Shown piece by piece: positions 3,831-49,278 of a stretch of DNA of 64,000 bases (positions within the stretch are counted from its first letter, which is position 1; each line of letters opens with the position of its first letter). Source of the DNA: Candidatus Magasanikiibacteriota bacterium. GTDB taxonomy: Bacteria > Patescibacteriota > Patescibacteriia > Magasanikbacterales > GWA2-37-8. The translations under genes were made by a program, and so were the position numbers. Where the stretch lies: assembly GCA_041666745.1 (NCBI GenBank), contig JBAYGI010000006.1, positions 3,474 to 67,473 of the forward strand, given 5' to 3'. The notes beneath the pieces were generated by a model. The model was not told the origin of the DNA. It saw only the letters and a list, made by a program, of their open reading frames with translations, and ran no database searches.

Positions 3831-4412
3831 TTACTCGAACAGGTCGAGGTCTGCCAGCTCGCGCACCTTGACCTGCGCGGGCTTCTCAGAGACCAGATAC
3901 GCGTCATAGTTGCGGACGCGATTCTTGTCCTTCGAGAACAGCGTGACGAGCCACCACGCCTCGTCGCCGACCTGGATCGAACCGTTTGGGTTTATGGCGA
4001 TCACCACGCCCTGCTTCTTGGCGTTGGTGAGCGAGAGCCTGGGGCCATCCTTGCAGATGATCCCAGAGATCTTCTCGGTTGGCACGACCGTCTCACCCTT
4101 CACGTTGGTGTAGGTGAGGTTGGTGGGCGGATCGAACGCCAGATCCGGTTCCGGCGTGAGAATCGGTTCTCCGTACTTCCCCGGAGAGGCCATGTAGTAC
4201 TGGCGCTCCCCGTTCGGTCCGAGATTCATGATCATATACTGGCCGGGTTTCTTTCCGACCTCGACCGTCCACTGACATGTAGGGTTGGTGGAGCAAAGAT
4301 CCCGCAAAAACTTCTTCAGCGCCGGCCGATTGTCTGAATCGACCAACGCGAATTGCTCATCAGGGCTAAGCTCGCGCCACGCCGCGATCATCGCGTCGAA
4401 TGTTGGCTTCAT
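3831..4412 (-). CDS. hypothetical protein on GC-rich island A
   Basis: GC about 58% against a ~35% background. Probable start at MKPTFDAM, preceded by an AAAGGA RBS. TTGACT-17-TATTTT promoter near 4550-4583 (minus orientation). GC hairpin ccggcctcggccgg after the stop. No recognisable family. Confidence 0.55.
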   Translation of the reverse strand: MKPTFDAMIAAWRELSPDEQFALVDSDNRPALKKFLRDLCSTNPTCQWTVEVGKKPGQYMIMNLGPNGERQYYMASPGKYGEPILTPEPDLAFDPPTNLTYTNVKGETVVPTEKISGIICKDGPRLSLTNAKKQGVVIAINPNGSIQVGDEAWWLVTLFSKDKNRVRNYDAYLVSEKPAQVKVRELADLDLFE

Positions 4413-14715: not shown

Positions 14716-15678
14716 TTAATTTTTACCGATAAACAAATCCAGCATTAACCCCAGATCAGCCTGCCCGGTTTTTGCTTTAAAATCCATATTCAACAACTGA
14801 TCATATATTTTGACCATCTGTTGTTTGTTATATTTCTTAACCAATGACAAGTTTTTCTTCACCACAAATGGATGCAGGCCAAGTTCTTTGGCAATAATAT
14901 CGCTGGTGATATTATCCTGTTGTTCAAAAAGACTGCGCATCTGCAACAAAATCCGAAACTGCCAAACAATCAGACCAAATAATTTGAAATCATCTTCGCC
15001 CAAACGGCGCTGTTCAGTCAACAATTTATAGGCTTGTTTTTTGTTGCCTGACACAATCGCCTCCACCATATTAAAAACATTGTCGTCCACTTTTTCTTCC
15101 AAAAATAAATTTATTTCCGGCACTCCAATTTCTTTTTCACCGCCAAAAGCACAAAGTTGATCCAACAAGGAATTTAAAAACCAACCATCTTTGCCAGCAT
15201 TTTGCGCCAAATAATTTATCGCCGTAGTGGAAATTTTTGCGCCACGTTTTTTAATTTCACTGGCGATAAAACCGGTGAGTTGCACCCCAACCAACAGAGA
15301 AAACTCTTGAGCATATTTTTCTTTTTTTAACATTCCTTCCAGCTCTTTTATTTCTTTCACTTTACCCAACCCTTCGCCCTGCCAAAAAATTATGATATTG
15401 CTTTCAGGAATTTTATTATCTTTGATACGTCGAATTAATTCAACCAAAAGTTCTTTGTCTGAAGTAGATAAAATATTTTCTATTACTACTAGGCGTTTTT
15501 CAGATAAAAACGGTGTCGAGATGACTTCACTCAAAACCTTGCCTGGTTCAGATTTCTTCCCATCAACAAAAACCACGTTGTACCCTTGTGGATCACGTGT
15601 TTGTTTGAATCGTTCAACCTGCTCTTTGAGATATTGCCGACTACGGAAAGTGTCCGCGCCGTGGATGTAGATTATCAT
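14716..15678 (-). CDS. holA: DNA polymerase III delta subunit
   Basis: Length and N-terminal MIIYIHGADTF...LVVIEN pattern. Confidence 0.7.
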   Translation of the reverse strand: MIIYIHGADTFRSRQYLKEQVERFKQTRDPQGYNVVFVDGKKSEPGKVLSEVISTPFLSEKRLVVIENILSTSDKELLVELIRRIKDNKIPESNIIIFWQGEGLGKVKEIKELEGMLKKEKYAQEFSLLVGVQLTGFIASEIKKRGAKISTTAINYLAQNAGKDGWFLNSLLDQLCAFGGEKEIGVPEINLFLEEKVDDNVFNMVEAIVSGNKKQAYKLLTEQRRLGEDDFKLFGLIVWQFRILLQMRSLFEQQDNITSDIIAKELGLHPFVVKKNLSLVKKYNKQQMVKIYDQLLNMDFKAKTGQADLGLMLDLFIGKN

Positions 15679-15803
15679 AGCGGGGATATTGTAATACTTT
15701 TCTGGATGATTGACAAATATAGAAAAATATGATACAAAGCAGTGTCATGCTGAGAAGTTTTCTACAGCCTCTGACACCGTTCGTTGACTCAAAGGAGACT
15801 ATT

Positions 15804-16391
15804 TTGAAGAGGTTCATTGTCGCAACACTGGCGATGATTGTGGGGTTCTCCACCACAACAGCCGGTGCAGACACATTTTCCGCCAGTCGAGTCAGGATGC
15901 TCATCCATGGCTCCAACCAGTTCAGCGAGCAGTTGGGCGCGTCTGTTCACTTCATTCCGGCTGGAAATCTGCTGGGAGAGGTAGCACCGTTGATCTACGG
16001 CTCGTTCGACTGGACACCGATTCCGGAACTGACAATCAGCCCTACCGTGGGCTGGACGTTCAAGCCGGATGAGATGGTTGTGTCGCTCCGCCTCGCCCCG
16101 AAAATCGGCAAGTTCTGGGGGTGGGTGGATCTTGAAGAACGACCGACGTCCCGTGCATTCTACTGGTTCGTGCAGGCTCAATACCAGGTAACGAGCTTCC
16201 TGCACATCGGTGCCGAGCAAGAGTCATGGGGCGATTTCCACGACTTCAGCACGGCTTCGCACGGTGGCGGCCCGAACGTCCTCCTCCGCTTCGGAAGAAA
16301 CTTCGGCACAGACCTTGCACTACACGCCCGTTCCCTCGGCGGCAGTGCGGTCAATCTGGAGTTCTTTTCCCGGATCCATTTGTTCCTCTAA
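15804..16391 (+). CDS. GC-rich secreted protein, paralog 1 (island C)
   Basis: TTG start after an AAGGAG RBS. Signal peptide MKRFIVATLAMIVGFSTTTAGA. Beta-rich alternating pattern ending NLEFFSRIHLFL. TTGACA promoter at 15709. The ORF-track ATG at 15729 is probably too far upstream. Confidence 0.5.
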   Translation: MKRFIVATLAMIVGFSTTTAGADTFSASRVRMLIHGSNQFSEQLGASVHFIPAGNLLGEVAPLIYGSFDWTPIPELTISPTVGWTFKPDEMVVSLRLAPKIGKFWGWVDLEERPTSRAFYWFVQAQYQVTSFLHIGAEQESWGDFHDFSTASHGGGPNVLLRFGRNFGTDLALHARSLGGSAVNLEFFSRIHLFL

Positions 16392-16470
16392 CCGGTTGCG
16401 CGCTACCGTCCAACAAAGCGCGCAAAATCTTTTTCAACTTAATATATTTAGGTTTAAGAAGATAATAAAA
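16392..16470 (+). repeat. conserved 3' element copy 1 (hairpin ttgcgcgc...gcgcgcaa)
   Basis: About 90% identical over ~80 bp to 19343-19425. Followed by a terminator at 16471-16506. Confidence 0.7.
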
Positions 16471-16511
16471 AAAACCGACTGCCATCTGCGATCGGTTTTT
16501 TTATAAAAATC

Positions 16512-16709
16512 TTATTTCTTTTTCACAATTATTTTATCCACAAAAGTCATCGCATCTTTGGGTTTTTTAAAAATCAATTGCTTGCCAGTTTTTCTTTCAT
16601 CTTGCGCCTCTTTTAAAACTGACAACAACAAATCTGACGATTCACTAAATTTAGTTTTTGTGTTTAAAATAGTGCTCATATAATATACGCCGCATTGACA
16701 ACTACCCAA
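16512..16709 (-). CDS. hypothetical small protein
   Basis: 65-aa ORF upstream of the DUF3800 gene. Weak. Confidence 0.25.
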   Translation of the reverse strand: MGSCQCGVYYMSTILNTKTKFSESSDLLLSVLKEAQDERKTGKQLIFKKPKDAMTFVDKIIVKKK

Positions 16710-16779
16710 TTTTCTGATACAGTATATTCAGGTAACAAGAAACTCGGGACAAATCCGCCGAAAGGGGAAAGCCGTAAGG

Positions 16780-17349
16780 CTACCGAGTCATCTGACCGTC
16801 CACAAGCTGGACGGTTATTTTTTTCTCAAATAATTTAGTTAATTTAATAGTTTGCTCTGTGGAATTATCTGCGTGAGAACGAAATAATCCTGCGATTGCG
16901 TCCGCTAATCTCAAGCCCGCCGACGCTTCGTCCCTTAACAATCTAATTTTCTTTACAGAAATATTTTTATCACGCAAAACCTTTTTTAGTTTTTGTTCAT
17001 ATCGTTTTGACTTTTTACCATCTATAATTATTTTTTTAATATTGTGTTCTATTATTAAATGCTGAAAAATATTTTCAAAAGCAATATTATAATTTATTGG
17101 ATTATTTACAATGGCTAGTTTAAAAGAAAAATCCAAATTACTCACTACAGTAAGAAAACTTGCTCGTTTTTTCCATCCATTTGTTGAACCATAATCCGAC
17201 CAATGAAACGGTTTTATGCATAATAATTTTTCTACTTCAACAACCGCTTCTTCCATTTCTTTGATACTTTTTGCTTGTAAATAAACAAAAGAAATAGTTG
17301 AATGCCCTACTTTTTTATGAATACCTGATTCGTCTATAAAAATTATCAT
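16780..17349 (-). CDS. DUF3800 family protein
   Basis: N-terminal MIIFIDESG signature. Confidence 0.55.
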   Translation of the reverse strand: MIIFIDESGIHKKVGHSTISFVYLQAKSIKEMEEAVVEVEKLLCIKPFHWSDYGSTNGWKKRASFLTVVSNLDFSFKLAIVNNPINYNIAFENIFQHLIIEHNIKKIIIDGKKSKRYEQKLKKVLRDKNISVKKIRLLRDEASAGLRLADAIAGLFRSHADNSTEQTIKLTKLFEKKITVQLVDGQMTR

Positions 17350-17394
17350 ACCCCCTCCTTTTTAAAACTCATTTTCTACTAAATTAAATACCTA

Positions 17395-18543
17395 TTAAAT
17401 TTTTTTCCCCCACAGCTGATCAAAATACGATTTAAAACCAGCATATATTTCGGGCTGTGCAAAATGAATCACGGTAGGATTTTCGCCATACAAAATAATA
17501 AAAGCCTTGTTGTGAAACAAATTTATTTGCATCGGAATTTTTGGAGCCGACGCGTAAAGTTTCAGATGACTAATTTTTTCCATACCGTCACCAGACTGCA
17601 CAAATCTTTTTTTAATTCGATCAAAAGATTCACTATATACCAACATGTTGGCTACAACTCCTTTTTTAATTCTATCCGTATGAAATTCATCATACAATTT
17701 TTGGACAACACCATTTTCATCTCCGGCTGAAGCGCCCAACACAAAATATTCTTCACCTGTTTTTAATTCATCCAACATTTTATAAATAGTTTTTTTCAAA
17801 GAACCAATCCCGGTCTCTACCACCACCTGTTGACTCCAAAAATATTCAAAATATTTTTTCATCGCATCCACTACCGTACGACTGCGAATATGAAAAACCA
17901 GTGGATCTTCGTCGATTACCATGATAGATAATTTGTCATAGCAAAAATTAAACCAAAGGGGCATTTTGGCATCAAACGGCAGATACCTCGCTTCTGTAAG
18001 ATCTTTTTTGTTGCGATCATCTAAAATTTCTTGTTCGACGGTGTGGTCAAAGAGAATTTTAAAGTTAACATTTTTCTTAATCCTTCTTTTGTGAAAATCT
18101 TTCCAATCAAACGAACCACCTTCGGTTGATTCTCTAGTTGCACCAAGCACATACATTGTTTCGCCCGGTGGCGCGTCAGCACTTCTTTCGGTAGTATTTT
18201 TTATTGCCTCCACTCCTTCAAACACACCGACCTCACGCATTCCAACCTTGTGTCTTTTTTGTAGTTCGGAGACTAGGTTTTCTGCGGTCTTTCTTTTATT
18301 CTCCAAATCTTCAATTATATGTTCTGGGCCATTCGCCGAAAACTCAAAAACACCTTTACGTTCGGCCTTGGATACCATGTCTCTTTTGACCAGTTCCTCT
18401 AAGGCAGTATAGACGAGGTTGCGATGAAGGCCTGTTTTGCTGATTATCTGACCGGCTTTGGCTTTTTGCAAATCTATTAAGGCCAAGTACACAATAGCCT
18501 CATTTTTACCAAAGCCTAATTTTGCTAGTTCATTTTCTAACAT
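17395..18543 (-). CDS. TrmB-family transcriptional regulator (N-terminal wHTH plus C-terminal domain)
   Basis: N-terminus LAKLGFGKNEAIVYLALIDLQKAKAGQIISKTGLHRNLVYTALEELVKRDMV. Confidence 0.55.
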   Translation of the reverse strand: MLENELAKLGFGKNEAIVYLALIDLQKAKAGQIISKTGLHRNLVYTALEELVKRDMVSKAERKGVFEFSANGPEHIIEDLENKRKTAENLVSELQKRHKVGMREVGVFEGVEAIKNTTERSADAPPGETMYVLGATRESTEGGSFDWKDFHKRRIKKNVNFKILFDHTVEQEILDDRNKKDLTEARYLPFDAKMPLWFNFCYDKLSIMVIDEDPLVFHIRSRTVVDAMKKYFEYFWSQQVVVETGIGSLKKTIYKMLDELKTGEEYFVLGASAGDENGVVQKLYDEFHTDRIKKGVVANMLVYSESFDRIKKRFVQSGDGMEKISHLKLYASAPKIPMQINLFHNKAFIILYGENPTVIHFAQPEIYAGFKSYFDQLWGKKI

Positions 18544-18661
18544 ATTGTCATATTATTTATGATAACATCATTATAATATGCTTAGCCAAAATTGTCAACT
18601 TGCTAGGATTGTTGTCAAGTGGAATGTGACTGTTTTGGGCTAAAGTTAGCCAAAATACCCT

Positions 18662-18690
18662 TGACAAGATTATGAATATGTGATATACTT
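18662..18690 (+). promoter_or_regulatory. consensus promoter TTGACA-17-TATACT for paralog 2
   Basis: Perfect hexamers seen directly. Preceded by ttagccaaaat direct repeats at 18580-18655. Confidence 0.55.
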
Positions 18691-18856
18691 TGCTGTTACG
18701 ATGAATAACCGTAATGAAGTTCTTTACAACTGCCAGACGGAGTAGTGAACGGCAAAACTGCTTTTTACTACCTCGTCTGGCACAAGCAATATGGGTTCAC
18801 AAATGTGACTCGATTGACCAGTGCAGGTGGGCGGACTTATGTCCGGGGAGAATACC

Positions 18857-19342
18857 ATGAAGTCGACCCTCATCGTTCTCGTGCTCGCGTTCGTCTCTCT
18901 CACGGCCGCCACGGCCATCGGGCTCACCCCCGGCCTCAGTTTCCGGGAGGGATACGTCGTCCTGCTCAAGGACGGAGGTACCCCCGGACCGGTGGGTACC
19001 CGGATCGACTTCACTGTTTCTGAGAAGATCTCAGAGACGGTGTCCCTCATCGGAGGGGTAGGGGTGGGTACCCCGAACGATGTCTTCAAACCATCCCTGC
19101 GGATAGCCGTGGGTGGTGCGATGGCATTGGTGGGCAGGTGGTCTGTCCACGCCAGCGGACTGTTCCAGCGCAACATTGGTTACGGCGGGAAACCGTCGAC
19201 AACAGCGCTGGCTGTCGGAGGAGGTCCGACTTACAAAGTTGCAGATGGCGTTGCCTTGTCCTTGTCTTTCGGACCAGGCAAAATGCTTGACGGTGACTGG
19301 TCGTTTCTCATCCAGCCGTCGATTAGCATCTCCTTTCTGTAA
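18857..19342 (+). CDS. GC-rich secreted protein, paralog 2 (island D)
   Basis: GGGGAGAA RBS then ATG. Signal peptide MKSTLIVLVLAFVSLTAATA. Beta-rich. Ends ISISFL. About 62% GC. Confidence 0.5.
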   Translation: MKSTLIVLVLAFVSLTAATAIGLTPGLSFREGYVVLLKDGGTPGPVGTRIDFTVSEKISETVSLIGGVGVGTPNDVFKPSLRIAVGGAMALVGRWSVHASGLFQRNIGYGGKPSTTALAVGGGPTYKVADGVALSLSFGPGKMLDGDWSFLIQPSISISFL

Positions 19343-19425
19343 CCCATAACCGGTCGCGCGCTACCATCCAACAAAGCGCGCAAAATCTTTTTCAACTTAA
19401 TACCTTTAGGTTTAAGAAGACAACA
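19343..19425 (+). repeat. conserved 3' element copy 2
   Basis: Aligns with 16392-16470. Terminator at 19424-19457. Confidence 0.7.
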
Positions 19426-19466
19426 AAAAACCACCCGAGAGAAGGGTGGTTTTTTGTTTATAAATT

Positions 19467-22142
19467 TTATTTCATTTCCCCCCAGCTATGCCCAATATTC
19501 ACCTCCACCTTCACCGGCACTCTCAGTTTCACTACATTTTCCATGGTTTCTTTTACCATTTGACTCACTTTTTCCTCTTGTCCTTTTTTTATTTCAAATA
19601 CCAACTCGTCGTGCACTTGAAGAATCATTTTTATTTCTTCGTTGCCGGCAATCGCATCTTGCACGTCGATCATCGCCAGCTTGATCAAATCCGCCGCCGT
19701 ACCCTGAATCGGATGATTGATCGCCATACGCTCGGCCGCGCTTCGCAACTGAAAATTCTGCGACTTTAATTCTGGAATATATCGTCGGCGCCCAAACAGA
19801 GTCTCACAATATCCTTCTTTTTTGGTGAACTCCAAAGTCTGATCGATGTATTTTTTCACTCCACTAAATTGTTCAAAATATTTTTTAATAAAATCTTTCG
19901 CCTGTTCATGTGAAATTTCCGCGCGCCAACTCAGACCATAGGTACCCATACCATACAGCACGCCAAAATTTATCTCTTTGGCGCTACGACGCATTTCTTT
20001 GGTTACCTGTTCCAAGGGCACATTATTTATCGCCGCCGCTGTAGCTTTGTGAATATCCAAATCTTTTTCAAAAATTTCCATCATTTTTTTATCTTGTGCC
20101 AATGATGCTACAATACGCAATTCGATTTGACTATAATCCGCACTCACCAATATGTTTCCTTTTTCCGCCACAAATGTTTTGCGCACCTCACGCCCAATCT
20201 CGGTCCGAATCGGAATATTTTGTAAATTTGGATCAGAGCTGGACAGTCTGCCGGTGGCTGTGACCGCCTGATTAAAAGTCGTATGAATGCGTCCGGTTTT
20301 TTTGTTGATTAGGGTCGGCAAAACATCTACATAAGTATTTTGCAATTTGGACAACTCGCGATAAATTTCAATCTCATCAATAATCGGATGCAACCCCCGC
20401 ATTTTTTCAAGCTGTTCCGCCGAAGTGGACAGGCCGGTCTTGCCTTTTTTAATTCCCTCTACCGATATTCCCAATTTGTCGAATAGCACTTCACGCAATT
20501 GCAGTGGCGAAGAAATATTAAATTCCATGCCCGCTAAATCAAAAATCTTTTTAGAAACTTTTTTAATATTTTCATTTACTTCCAAAGATAATTTTTTCAA
20601 CATTTCCAAATCCACCGACACGCCATTTAATTCCATTTGCGACAGGGCAAAAATCAGAGGCATTTCTATTTTTTGCATCAAACCTAGGTTGTCTGTTTTT
20701 TCCAATTCGTTTTTTAATTTATCGACAGTTTGATTTAACAAAAATAATTCTTGAGCGATAGCTTTGGCATCCACTCCAAACAAACTTTCTTGACCACTCC
20801 CTACTTTCAATTCTTTTCCCAAAACTTTCAATACCACGCTGGCGCTATCATGAGCGCGACTGCCCGGATTAAGCAAATATGATCCCACCATTACATCAAA
20901 CAAAGAATTGTTTATCTCTTGTTTTTGTAACAATAAAACCTTGATCAGTTGTTTCAAATCATGACCAACCAATTCGATTTTTTCATCCGCGAAAATCGGC
21001 AAAAATTCCTCTACCAAATTATTTTTTATATAGCAACCTTCATTTTCTACTATCACCACCAGGCCCAACAGACTGCTGGTCAAAACATCCTTTCCATTCA
21101 ACACCGCTTTGCAGGCAAACTGTTTTTGTTTTTTAATTTTTTCAACCAACTCTTTTATCTCATTTTTATTTTCTACTTCTTTAAATTTTAAATCCGCTAT
21201 TTTTTTACTTTTGGTTGTTTTGTTTTTTTCCGGTTCACCTTCTATTATATGTTCGAATCCGGGGATGCGTTTAAGCAGAGAAACAAATTCAAATTTTTGA
21301 AATAGTTTGATTATTTTTTCACGATCAAATTCACTGATCGCGCAATCGTCTAGTGTAAAACGCAAGTCCGGTACCGCACAATCTATGGCTGCCAATTCAT
21401 AACTCATCTGGGCGCTTTTTTCTCCATCAACTAATTTTTGCAAAACCGAAGCGCTAAACAATTCGCTTTTCTTTTTTTCTTTTTCCTTATACACCACTTT
21501 ATATATTTCTTTTAAATCACCAAATTTCAAAATTAGTTCCGTAGCGGTTTTTTCACCAATCCCCGGTACACCGGGGATATTGTCCGAGGCATCACCACGC
21601 AATGCTTTGTAATCTATTACCAACTCCGGCCCAAAACCAAAACGTTTTTTTACTTCGTCCGGATTATACACCACCACATCGTTCATGCCTTTGCGCAAAG
21701 TAAATACTTTTATTTTTTCATCTACCAACTGCAAGGTGTCCATATCCCCCGTCACTATAAACACTTCGTCGACTTCAGATTTTACTTTTTTTACCACCGT
21801 ACCGATAACATCGTCCGCCTCAAAACCCCTTTTTTCATAAATCGGAATACTAAAGGCCTCCACCACTTCATGAACCATCGGCATTTGATCATATAGTTCT
21901 TGGTCGGCTTTTACTCTCGTGCCTTTATATTTTTCATATTTTTCATGACGAAAAGTCCCGCCAGCGACATCAAAACTCACACACAAATGAGTGGGTTTTA
22001 AATCTTTCCAAACCTTGAGTAACATGGAAGTAAATCCATACACCGCATTGACCATCACTCCGTCTTTGGTGTGCATTGGAGGAATAGCATGATAGGCGCG
22101 ATGCACAATAGCATTGCCGTCTATTATTACAAATTTTTTCAT
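19467..22142 (-). CDS. polA: DNA polymerase I
   Basis: 891 aa with a 5'-3' exonuclease N-terminus and a PolA family polymerase domain. Confidence 0.9.
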   Translation of the reverse strand: MKKFVIIDGNAIVHRAYHAIPPMHTKDGVMVNAVYGFTSMLLKVWKDLKPTHLCVSFDVAGGTFRHEKYEKYKGTRVKADQELYDQMPMVHEVVEAFSIPIYEKRGFEADDVIGTVVKKVKSEVDEVFIVTGDMDTLQLVDEKIKVFTLRKGMNDVVVYNPDEVKKRFGFGPELVIDYKALRGDASDNIPGVPGIGEKTATELILKFGDLKEIYKVVYKEKEKKKSELFSASVLQKLVDGEKSAQMSYELAAIDCAVPDLRFTLDDCAISEFDREKIIKLFQKFEFVSLLKRIPGFEHIIEGEPEKNKTTKSKKIADLKFKEVENKNEIKELVEKIKKQKQFACKAVLNGKDVLTSSLLGLVVIVENEGCYIKNNLVEEFLPIFADEKIELVGHDLKQLIKVLLLQKQEINNSLFDVMVGSYLLNPGSRAHDSASVVLKVLGKELKVGSGQESLFGVDAKAIAQELFLLNQTVDKLKNELEKTDNLGLMQKIEMPLIFALSQMELNGVSVDLEMLKKLSLEVNENIKKVSKKIFDLAGMEFNISSPLQLREVLFDKLGISVEGIKKGKTGLSTSAEQLEKMRGLHPIIDEIEIYRELSKLQNTYVDVLPTLINKKTGRIHTTFNQAVTATGRLSSSDPNLQNIPIRTEIGREVRKTFVAEKGNILVSADYSQIELRIVASLAQDKKMMEIFEKDLDIHKATAAAINNVPLEQVTKEMRRSAKEINFGVLYGMGTYGLSWRAEISHEQAKDFIKKYFEQFSGVKKYIDQTLEFTKKEGYCETLFGRRRYIPELKSQNFQLRSAAERMAINHPIQGTAADLIKLAMIDVQDAIAGNEEIKMILQVHDELVFEIKKGQEEKVSQMVKETMENVVKLRVPVKVEVNIGHSWGEMK

Positions 22143-22148
22143 AAAAAA

Positions 22149-22176
22149 TTGTCATTCCCGCAAAAGCGGGAATCTA
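22149..22176 (+). repeat. hairpin repeat family 1, copy b (left terminal inverted repeat of the mini-cassette)
   Basis: ttgtcattcccgcaaaagcgggaatc. Confidence 0.6.
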
Positions 22177-22340
22177 ACCAATATTTTACTATTCTTTCCC
22201 TTTTTTAGCAAACCCGCCTTCGCTAAAGCTACGGCGGGTAAAACAAAAAAATCACCTGGCGGTGAAATAGTAGGGCGTCGGGCAGGGGTGTCATGTCCCC
22301 CTGCCCGACGGAAGTCCCGACAGCTCGCTCGATCACGGAG

Positions 22341-22478
22341 CTACGGGAAACGGTTGCGGTTTCGGGCCTCGGCGTTCATCTCGTACTCATCGTAGCTGCT
22401 GCGGGCGTGGCTGCAGTTGTTGACGAGCTTCTCGCACTGCGCGTCGGTCATGATGTACTCGGTCTCGTTGCGAAACAT
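22341..22478 (-). CDS. 45-aa Cys-containing peptide inside the GC-rich mini-cassette
   Basis: AAGGAG RBS 8 nt before the ATG. Translation MFRNETEYIMTDAQCEKLVNNCSHARSSYDEYEMNAEARNRNRFP. GC about 60%. Confidence 0.35.
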   Translation of the reverse strand: MFRNETEYIMTDAQCEKLVNNCSHARSSYDEYEMNAEARNRNRFP

Positions 22479-22587
22479 GAGAATGCTCCTTGCTCGGGTT
22501 GCTTCCTCCGACCTGCTTCCGCCCCAACGAGCGAATATGACAGGTACAGATAAGAATCATTTTATATGAGAGAGAGATAATAGTCAA

Positions 22588-22612
22588 GATTCCCGTTTCC
22601 ACGGGAATGACA
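22588..22612 (-). repeat. hairpin repeat family 1, copy c (right terminal inverted repeat, inverted orientation)
   Basis: Reverse complement is tgtcattcccgtggaaacgggaatc. Confidence 0.6.
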
Positions 22613-26409: not shown

Positions 26410-26472
26410 GTCATTCCCGCGAAGGCGGGAATCCAGTCGCTCGTTACTGTCATCCTGAGTATAGCGAAGGAT
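26410..26472 (+). repeat. hairpin repeat family 1, tandem copies d1 and d2
   Basis: tgtcattcccgcgaaggcgggaatcc plus the diverged tgtcatcctgagtatagcgaaggatcc. Terminator at 26487-26534. Confidence 0.55.
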
Positions 26473-26641: not shown

Positions 26642-27013
26642 ATGACCCTGAAATCCGAGCTCGTGGCAATACGCCAAGACAAGCAGGAAAGTCGCGACAG
26701 AGAGGACCAGAGGATAGTTCAGGAGAGTCACGACCACATGACTGCTCTGATCGACAACCTCCCTGACATGCTGAGGGCACAAGCCCGACTCAACGGCGGT
26801 ACGTTGTGGGTCAGCACATGCTACACCACCCATGTGAAGTGCGTGGTTCGTGACGAGGAAGGGGAAGACACTGTGTGGCACAGTGAGAAGACTTATTTCA
26901 CAGGGGCAGACTGGAGACGACTGGAAGTGTGGGTCCGGGAAAACGGCCTCCAGATGAATCGTCATCCAGATCAGGCCGCTGGGGGTGCGCCCTTGTACGG
27001 GATTGAGCCCTAA
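26642..27013 (+). CDS. hypothetical protein on GC-rich island E
   Basis: AGGAGA RBS. TTGACT-17-TAGTAT promoter at 26544. 123 aa with no recognised family. 11-bp-stem hairpin at 27027-27056. Confidence 0.5.
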   Translation: MTLKSELVAIRQDKQESRDREDQRIVQESHDHMTALIDNLPDMLRAQARLNGGTLWVSTCYTTHVKCVVRDEEGEDTVWHSEKTYFTGADWRRLEVWVRENGLQMNRHPDQAAGGAPLYGIEP

Positions 27014-49095: not shown

Positions 49096-49278
49096 ATGCC
49101 TCTGCTATTACACGCGACAATCGCGTCTTCGGGCGGGGCGAAAGGCAGTATGTCGGTGTCATTGATCATTTTGATCACAGTTGCGCTCGGTTTCGGCTTT
49201 GGCGTGCTCATTTTTGGAGTGGTAAGGGCAGTACACGCCCAAGCGGTGAAAAACACCAAAGGAAGTGAGAGGGAATGA
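49096..49278 (+). CDS. 60-aa single-TM peptide on GC-rich island G
   Basis: TTGACT-17-TAGTGT promoter ends about 6 nt before the ATG (leaderless-like). Overlaps by ATGA a second 30-codon ORF at 49275-49367 that has a GAGAGGG RBS. Large hairpin terminator at 49337-49395. Confidence 0.3.
   Translation: MPLLLHATIASSGGAKGSMSVSLIILITVALGFGFGVLIFGVVRAVHAQAVKNTKGSERE

Follow-up and report, generated by a model that had tools for sequence, protein, structure and literature searches.

Stable extragenic hairpins at the 3′ end of an mRNA, standing upstream of or instead of a terminator, are familiar from the repetitive extragenic palindromic (REP) sequences and bacterial interspersed mosaic elements (BIME), such as the malE-malF REP of E. 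coli; REP elements measure 20–40 nt and follow unrelated genes, in copy numbers that range from dozens to hundreds. Regulatory 3′ untranslated regions (UTRs), and small RNAs (sRNAs) derived from 3′ UTRs, are represented by the icaR 3′ UTR of S. aureus and by CpxQ and MicL of enterobacteria, acting on mRNAs for envelope proteins. Little is known of the RNA machinery in bacteria of the candidate phyla radiation (CPR). Here we describe an ~80-nt repeat found twice in a 64-kb stretch of Candidatus Magasanikbacteria (CPR/Patescibacteria) DNA with 39.6% GC, referred to as the window, where it follows two GC-rich genes, A and B, both predicted to encode outer-membrane-type beta-barrels. It has the look of a conserved mRNA element that had not been described before, and not that of the leftover of a simple gene duplication. 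Judged from sequence comparison, it is best read, at a probability of roughly 55%, as a cis-acting structured 3′ UTR module of barrel genes linked to a TrmB-family regulator, which has been copied onto gene A.

As in REP and BIME, the hairpins of the element lie at the mRNA 3′ end, where they are a plausible barrier to 3′-to-5′ exonucleases. Unlike REP, the element is ~80 nt long, is composed of two different hairpins with conserved loops and is associated with barrel genes only. Identity with REP/BIME was rejected as there are not many dispersed copies, with two in 64 kb of this genome and no true copy in the contig collections scanned. With icaR, CpxQ and MicL the element shares a conserved, structured 3′ UTR which includes the mRNA terminator and belongs to envelope or outer-membrane-type genes; it differs from them in having no identified target pairing, processing site or chaperone, and no convincing anti-Shine-Dalgarno sequence was seen on inspection. 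The DUF3800-associated RNA motifs, structured RNAs of unknown function (Weinberg et al., 2017; PMC5737381), are likewise followed by a terminator and are represented in the same neighborhood. The element, however, matches no DUF3800 motif or Rfam family, and is present in a locus (L050, below) without a DUF3800 gene. A literature search gave no description of either barrel family or of the 3′ element.

The Repeated 3′ Element

The two genes, the two copies of the element and their terminators are located in the window as follows.

15804–16391, + strand: gene A, 195 aa, TTG start after AAAGGAG, N-terminal hydrophobic helix, GC 0.57, GC at third codon positions (GC3) 0.70
16392–16470, + strand: 3′ UTR element copy A, with hairpin 1 (HP1) at 16396–16425 and hairpin 2 (HP2) at 16427–16463; covariance model 109 bits
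16468–16502, + strand: intrinsic terminator of gene A, its folded stem unrelated to that of the B terminator
18857–19342, + strand: gene B, 161 aa, N-terminal hydrophobic helix, GC 0.59, GC3 0.70
19350–19428, + strand: 3′ UTR element copy B, with HP1 at 19356–19381 and HP2 at 19386–19420; covariance model 107 bits
19422–19458, both strands: symmetrical bidirectional intrinsic terminator common to gene B (+) and polA (−)

A repeat search of the window recovered the element as a direct repeat of 84 nt with 93% identity (16389–16472 and 19347–19430) beginning at or just past the stop codon, in good agreement with the original prediction for this DNA, which had placed an approximately 90% identical element after each stop. 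The similarity begins at TAACCGG, which contains the stop codon in copy A and lies 8 nt past it in copy B, and it stops in an A-tract ahead of two unrelated terminator hairpins. In line with the earlier claim, the folds at 16468–16502 and 19422–19458 show that the terminators behind the two copies differ. HP1 and HP2 were themselves considered as intrinsic terminators and rejected, as they are followed by AAAAUC and AUAAUAAAA, respectively, and the true terminators are separate hairpins.

When the + strand was folded, each copy gave HP1, HP2 and the terminator (z = −6.3 and −8.5), with no shuffle as good. The stem of HP1 alternates G and C, and its loop of 12 nt is C/A-rich (ACCRUCCAACAA); in copy A the stem is of 9 bp of GC and the loop reads ACCGUCCAACAA. 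The 8-bp GC palindrome noted earlier is therefore not of fixed length, the stem ranging from 6 to 9 bp by copy. HP2 is a 15-bp, A/U-rich hairpin with one internal mismatch and two G·U pairs, and has a loop of 5 nt in copy A. These G·U pairs (U47·G73 and U54·G66) become A·C mismatches on the opposite strand, on which HP2 is not cleanly recovered, and for this reason HP2 is specific to the sense strand.

Pattern search and the covariance model both identified two copies in the window, 3 kb apart, and a 27-mer of the element occurs there exactly twice with 0 occurrences expected by chance. A search for further copies had been recommended; applied to the window and 15 comparison loci, the covariance model yielded no new one, and no true copy was present in the contig collections scanned. 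An exact-pattern 18-mer gave 30 matches in the genome contig collection, all with unrelated context, the metagenome contig collection gave 0 matches for either of two element halves, and the viral contig collection gave 7 chance matches for one pattern and 0 for the other; as the source contig itself is evidently missing from these collections, absence there is weak evidence. Scanning of the whole window with Rfam 15 at gathering thresholds returned only four tRNAs and a DUF3800-II RNA, leaving the element unmatched, and a permissive scan of 15600–19600 placed over it only sub-threshold, terminator-like noise.

Conservation of the Element in Related Genomes

The comparison loci are labeled L001–L004 and L042–L052, and among them the Logan contig L003 represents a sister genome. 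The gene order of L003 is holA, a promoter, the DUF3800-II RNA, the DUF3800 gene, the TrmB gene, the B leader, B, the 3′ element and a terminator, and its neighboring genes are mostly ~80–95% identical to those of the window in nucleotide sequence. The fraction of synonymous sites differing between the two is 0.36 for DUF3800, 0.54 for TrmB, 0.56 for holA and 0.62 for B, and the B proteins are 58% identical. The 3′ elements of B differ at 4 of 79 positions (95% identical). Against 36–62% of synonymous sites differing, the element is far more conserved than neutral sites, and on this measure of sequence divergence it is shown to be under strong purifying selection.

Sites which vary among the three close copies (A and B of the window and B of L003) are nearly all outside the stems, with two exceptions: the base of HP1, and the outermost pair of HP2, which both window copy B and L003 have lost. 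The HP1 loop has one change in 12 nt over these copies. Private changes number four in copy A and two each in the B copies of the window and L003, and this star-like pattern makes copy A about as old as the split of the window and L003 lineages and argues against a recent duplicate.

In two more distant loci, L050 and L052, the B proteins have ~30–40%, family-level identity to window B. Their 3′ UTRs contain a GC hairpin (stems GCGCAC/GUGCGC in L050 and GCGCGUA/UACGCGC in L052) with a 12–13-nt loop holding GUC, followed by an A/U hairpin and then by a terminator. The A/U hairpin is shorter than HP2, reads CUUGUUGGUACCAAGAAG and ends in AAGAAG, the outer stem UCUU/AAGA alone being retained; an exact 20-mer, AAGAAGATAACAAAAAACCA, is common to L050 and L003. 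In a MAFFT alignment of five sequences, three of them nearly identical, which was not fitted to structure, HP1 was 89% paired and four of its nine pairs changed on both sides, a result reached by 0 of 500 shuffles. The covariance model built on the three close copies gave a weak match in L050 (E = 0.38), located directly past the stop codon. The suggestion of a 3′ UTR structure in the original prediction is supported by these results, given the location between stop codon and terminator, the sense-strand fold, conservation above that of synonymous sites, and hairpins with compensatory changes in distant orthologs.

A number of points weigh against this reading. The instances of the element number five, of which three are near-identical, and the covariation therefore comes from the two divergent sequences. 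The alignment register of HP1 is ambiguous for L050, owing to the alternating-GC stem, and the covariance model, weak on L050, misses L052. The B orthologs of L049 and L051 carry a plain terminator alone, so that the module is not universal in the B family. Finally, loops and linkers are as conserved as stems, and a protein-binding site at the DNA level would fit this too.

Native Owner of the Element and its Presence at Gene A

Further features between the two barrel genes, and those immediately upstream of gene A, are listed below.

15711–15739, + strand: promoter P1 of gene A (TTGACA, 17 nt, TACAAA)
15738–15781, + strand: hairpin in the 5′ UTR of gene A, folding as GUGUCA. GCUG...CAGC. CUC. 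UGACAC
16512–16679, − strand: small AT-rich open reading frame (ORF) of ~55 aa (MSTILNTKTKF...), no Pfam match, within the 987-bp segment 15736–16722
16695–16723, + strand: promoter P2 of the DUF3800-II RNA (TTGACA, 17 nt, TACAGT), at the right end of the insertion/deletion (indel) described below; 71% like P1 over 28 nt
16732–16797, + strand: DUF3800-II RNA (Rfam RF02961, 57.6 bits against a gathering threshold of 43.2), with its terminator at 16793–16817
17395–18543, − strand: TrmB-family regulator gene (N-terminal winged-helix DNA-binding domain, PF01978, E = 2e-11, above the curated cut-off), divergent from gene B

Genes A and B flank the small ORF, a DUF3800 gene and the TrmB-family gene, as originally reported, the last two being borne out by Pfam matches of 1.5e-9 and 2e-11. 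The locus of L050 runs rpsT, holA, TrmB, B, an ATPase gene and polA, which is the window locus minus DUF3800 and gene A. The TrmB-B pairing is also found in L049, L051 and L052, and TrmB is divergent from B in every B-ortholog locus compared. On this evidence of gene order, gene B is the ancestral resident of the holA...polA locus and the divergent TrmB-B pair is ancestral. In the other A-family loci (L001, L002, L004 and L042–L048) the 3′ element was absent and plain terminators only were found. One of these, L048, has its A-family gene divergent from a TrmB gene (Pfam 4.9e-17) behind a AGCCAAAAAT...TTTACAAG box, so that, from one genome to another, equivalent regulatory slots are held by A-type or by B-type barrels.

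The 5′ UTR hairpin of gene A has the architecture and the AGCCUCUGACA motif (one exact occurrence in the window) of the B-ortholog 5′ UTRs in L051 and L049, with an inner stem in L049 (GCUA/UAGC) that represents a compensatory change. With a B-type 3′ UTR and a B-type 5′ hairpin, gene A would sit in a B-type expression cassette, inside a segment of 987 bp (15736–16722) that is missing from L003. This segment comprises the A 5′ UTR, gene A, the element, the terminator, the small AT-rich ORF, and the −35 and spacer of P2. The indel junctions, 15735/15736 and 16722/16723, lie in the two promoter copies, ~250 bp beyond the element; the promoter of L003 is the same as window P1 as far as TGATAC and thereafter resembles the sequence downstream of P2, and the DUF3800-II RNA of L003 is driven directly by the promoter which drives gene A in the window. 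The simplest reading of these sequences is a deletion in L003 between the two promoter copies, with an insertion in the window lineage as the alternative. The idea of a cassette can be kept in part, in the looser sense that B-type 5′ and 3′ UTRs surround an unrelated A coding sequence (CDS). Replacement of the B CDS by a foreign allele, with the conserved flanks left in place, was also considered and rejected, as the synonymous divergence (dS) of B, 1.29, is not clearly higher than that of TrmB and holA (0.96–1.01), and faster protein evolution (nonsynonymous divergence, dN, 0.34) by vertical descent is therefore enough.

The following course of events would account for these observations. The 3′ module would be co-transcribed with its gene, lying past the stop codon and ahead of an intrinsic terminator that is distinct from it, and would be native to gene B, a signal-peptide-bearing barrel gene divergent from a TrmB-family regulator in the conserved holA...polA locus. 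Gene A, in the window lineage, would have acquired a copy of the B 3′ UTR and, along with it, a 5′ UTR hairpin of B type. We infer that the module acts in cis on the mRNA, either in protection or definition of the 3′ end or as a binding platform for protein or RNA; a sequence-specific platform is suggested by loops and linkers being as conserved as stems. Either role would place both barrel mRNAs under shared post-transcriptional control, and transcription of B would be controlled by the TrmB-family protein through putative TTAGCCAAAAT operator boxes. Pairing of the 3′ UTR with the Shine-Dalgarno region or with the 5′ leader was looked for by eye, and none was convincing.

The Two Barrel Genes

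The description of A and B as GC-rich genes whose products have signal peptides, beta-strand-like sequence and F-L ends proved accurate: the islands at 15804–16391 and 18857–19342 have ~57–59% GC in a window of 39.6%, and both proteins have an N-terminal hydrophobic helix, are all-beta and end in F-L. An AlphaFold2 model of the gene A product, made from an alignment of homologs (predicted local distance difference test, pLDDT, 84), has a helix at the N terminus and, after it, 11 long strand elements in antiparallel arrangement. The product is predicted to be a 12-stranded NanC/KdgM-like beta-barrel, and that of gene B an 8-stranded OmpA/NspA-like beta-barrel of outer-membrane-protein (OMP)-like type. 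Their named relatives among small outer-membrane beta-barrels are the 12-stranded NanC/KdgM porins for A and the 8-stranded OmpA/OprF-N, NspA and OmpW barrels for B. The marks of an outer-membrane beta-barrel, namely a signal peptide, an even strand number closing the barrel and a C-terminal aromatic residue, are present in predicted A and B, and the C-terminal residue of B orthologs is F. A terminal F is the usual barrel C-terminal signal. By these models, A and B are outer-membrane-type barrels of different families. Magasanikbacteria and related CPR bacteria are thought to be without an outer membrane.

The original prediction had regarded A and B as paralogs. This was rejected, as there is no detectable similarity between them by sequence (BLASTP best E = 3.1) or when the family alignments, of 10 members for A and 22 for B, were compared profile against profile (hhalign probability 12%). 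Among 5.8 billion protein clusters gene A has 10 homologs, and those with names are assigned to Magasanikbacteria, Patescibacteria or “bacterium.” A word-index search with gene B returned a single homolog beyond the source assembly, and an exhaustive profile search returned 39 cluster representatives of 130–230 aa, the named ones belonging to Magasanikbacteria, Parcubacteria or “Patescibacteria group.” One B-family member bears the UniRef name [quoted passage not shown] and Pfam OMP_b-brl was weakly matched by 5 of 22 B-family members scanned. Both barrel families appear, from the homologs retrieved, to be confined to CPR bacteria.

The annotated start of gene A, ATG 15729, is inside the −10 region of promoter P1. 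The real start is likely TTG 15804, which is preceded by AAAGGAG and agrees with the alignment of homologs. As a point for annotation, there are doubtful public gene calls at this locus (window 15729 and 18821; protein P0011): the deposited gene A is called as 220 aa from the ATG in its own −10 box, and one JGI gene call for B is truncated to a 100-aa C-terminal fragment.

The A-family barrel gene is the last in a three-gene island in the Logan contigs L004 (847–1949) and L042 (1110–2437), where the two small ORFs before it encode 67 and 59 aa and 135 and 67 aa, respectively, and are moderately GC-rich (GC 0.48–0.50), and where the island adjoins an endonuclease-type gene (GIY-YIG in L004, DUF559 in L042).

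Alternative Explanations

One alternative is a variant of the best explanation with another mode of action, in which HP1, HP2 and the terminator (~115 nt) would be processed out of the 3′ UTR as a trans-acting sRNA whose HP1 loop pairs with other transcripts. A three-hairpin unit ending in an intrinsic terminator is of the size and shape of a bacterial sRNA, and the HP1 loop is conserved, with its GUC core found again in L050 and L052. The octamer ACCGUCCA of this loop reads the same as the 5′ arm of the DUF3800-II terminator and is hence complementary to the 3′ arm of that terminator (sites 16405–16412 against 16795–16802 and 16808–16815), and copy B of L003 has the same octamer. The octamer is mismatched in window copy B (ACCAUCCA), however, and an exact 8-mer at four occurrences was reached by 2 of 100 shuffles, so that coincidence is possible. 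There is no shared promoter ahead of the element, the two coding 3′ ends being unrelated, and no processing site or target was identified. We consider this mode of action unlikely.

It is also quite unlikely that the repeat is a recombination site or cassette boundary at the DNA level, attC-like or recognized by another site-specific or hairpin-recognizing recombinase, at which GC-rich barrel genes are swapped. Such a site would explain why the element sits precisely at the 3′ edge of two CDSs which look foreign in composition, why gene A is present in the window and missing from sister genome L003, why gene A has B-type flanks at either end, and why A-type and B-type barrels are in equivalent TrmB-divergent slots across genomes. 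As in integron attC, an imperfect palindrome lies directly past an ORF, and the HP1 loop has one RYYYAAC-like heptamer, GTCCAAC. Identity with attC was nevertheless rejected, as no same-strand GTTRRRY partner was found within the element to form a paired core, no integrase of the IntI family is present among 20 long ORFs, and the copies are separated by three other genes and form no array; A and B, unlike integron cassettes, each have their own promoter. The scan of these 20 long ORFs (0.8–47.6 kb) matched no recombinase, transposase or integrase family and gave no sign of mobile elements, and the window is core chromosome, with dnaA and dnaN nearby together with holA, polA, trigger factor and a proton-pumping pyrophosphatase. 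The indel junctions, ~250 bp away from the element, look like the result of recombination between repeated TGATAC −10 regions. B is found at one syntenic locus across genomes, HP2, owing to its G·U pairs, is specific to one strand as RNA, and the genome, metagenome and viral collections scanned hold no true copies. With junctions in promoters, no recombinase among the ORFs scanned and no paired attC cores, the recombination site put forward in the original prediction is not sustained.

That the element is without function, left over from a recent local duplication which took in the 3′ flank, would fit two copies 3 kb apart in one genome with nothing similar in the large collections scanned, but this neutral reading is very unlikely and already largely refuted, since the A and B proteins are unrelated and no gene was duplicated, the L003 ortholog is 95% identical where 36–62% of synonymous sites differ, the three-copy star dates copy A near the window/L003 split, and the hairpins are kept in distant orthologs. 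It had been anticipated that an absence of covariation coupled with clear protein homology would indicate a simple duplication, and the evidence contradicts both counts, in the case of covariation through the two divergent sequences. Save for the paralogs and the promoters, the earlier description of the locus was largely right, and of its proposals the 3′ UTR RNA is the best supported.

Promoters, Regulator and Other Structured RNAs

Upstream of gene B the following features were identified.

18582–18592 and 18646–18656, + strand: two TTAGCCAAAAT boxes in the TrmB/B intergenic region, the second abutting the −35 of the B promoter
18661–18689, + strand: gene B promoter (TTGACA, 17 nt, TATACT, with TG before it)
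18692–18856, + strand: structured 5′ leader of gene B, ~165 nt (z = −5.2), no Rfam match

The promoters of the two genes had been described as similar. The three promoters of the region are 68–71% alike over 28 nt, which represents the consensus of TTGACAA and a TG-extended −10 only, and 14 sites in the window fit TTGACA-N16-18-TANNNT. The direct repeats reported upstream of the regulator are real and consist of TTAGCCAAAAT twice, at 18582 and 18646. The layout of box and promoter is kept, often with two boxes, in L003 (box at ~2349), L049 (~3730), L050 (~3987), L051 (~3830 and ~3897) and L052 (~243); L003 lacks 64 bp bearing the first box and an inverted copy. From this conserved arrangement the boxes are probably the operator of the divergent TrmB-family regulator. 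A wider TTAGCCAAAAT regulon was considered, the window having 15 matches against 4.3 expected, and was set aside as the extra sites inspected sit inside a coding region. In L052 the B ortholog is separated from the TrmB operator/promoter by a GC-rich 113-aa ORF (318–659; GC3 0.77, no Pfam match), and the B gene there is, by its position, probably second in an operon.

The 5′ leader of gene B contains a long hairpin (18731–18782) and a small hairpin just ahead of the Shine-Dalgarno sequence. Its counterpart in L003 (2401–2565) gave z = −7.2, in a region 77–85% identical and with three compensatory pairs; more distant B orthologs have short leaders of another kind. The leader is a candidate new cis-regulatory leader, known from these two sequences. 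The DUF3800-II RNA, driven by P2 and located between the barrel genes, lies convergent to the DUF3800 gene, whose 3′ end it overlaps.

GC-Rich Genes and Significance of the Element

GC3 is bimodal in the window, with six small ORFs at 0.57–0.91 and the other 33 ORFs examined at 0.46 or below. Besides A and B, the GC-rich small ORFs are located as follows.

3831–4412, − strand: product of 193 aa with 28 homologs, Patescibacteria wherever named, and no Pfam domain
22341–22478, − strand: GC-rich small ORF
26642–27013, + strand: GC-rich small ORF
49096–49278, + strand: GC-rich small ORF

B orthologs have a GC3 of 0.52–0.82, against 0.23–0.30 in the adjacent TrmB genes, and are GC-rich in every genome examined, and A homologs display the same contrast in most genomes. 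Recent import from GC-rich donors was considered and rejected: the named homologs of A, B and the third island protein are only from Patescibacteria, and this confinement to the CPR, along with B orthologs which are GC-rich everywhere, makes such import unlikely.

A separate repeat was observed at some of these islands. Hairpin repeats of the form GTCATTCCCGC...GCGGGAATC (five matches against 0.67 expected) occur at 22151–22180 and 22585–22611, where they are inverted and flank the GC-rich island at 22.2–22.6 kb, and again at 26410–26440, just upstream of the 26.6-kb island. From their placement they may be a small palindromic repeat family tied to GC islands.

A broader and decidedly speculative proposal, to which we give little credence, is that of a dedicated CPR expression system for OMP-like barrels. 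It would consist of a TrmB regulator with its TTAGCCAAAAT operator, interchangeable GC-rich A or B cargo, and portable 5′ and 3′ UTR modules, with the 3′ hairpins serving as a recognition signal (for mRNA localization, stability or translation) for barrels that enter the host-cell membrane, and GC-richness would be selected and not the trace of a recent transfer.

The element itself is one more lineage-restricted candidate among cis-acting RNA structures, and of a known kind, that of structured 3′ UTR elements; it is of modest importance on its own. Its context is more unusual. Two unrelated families of predicted outer-membrane-type barrels, both apparently confined to the CPR and repeatedly paired with TrmB, share UTR modules, and the barrel genes remain GC-rich, with a GC3 of 0.5–0.8 beside genes at 0.2–0.45, even at a locus whose synteny is kept among genomes that have diverged deeply. 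Should experiments confirm this, it would be relevant to the CPR cell envelope and host contact, and to the upkeep and expression of compositionally deviant genes in reduced genomes.

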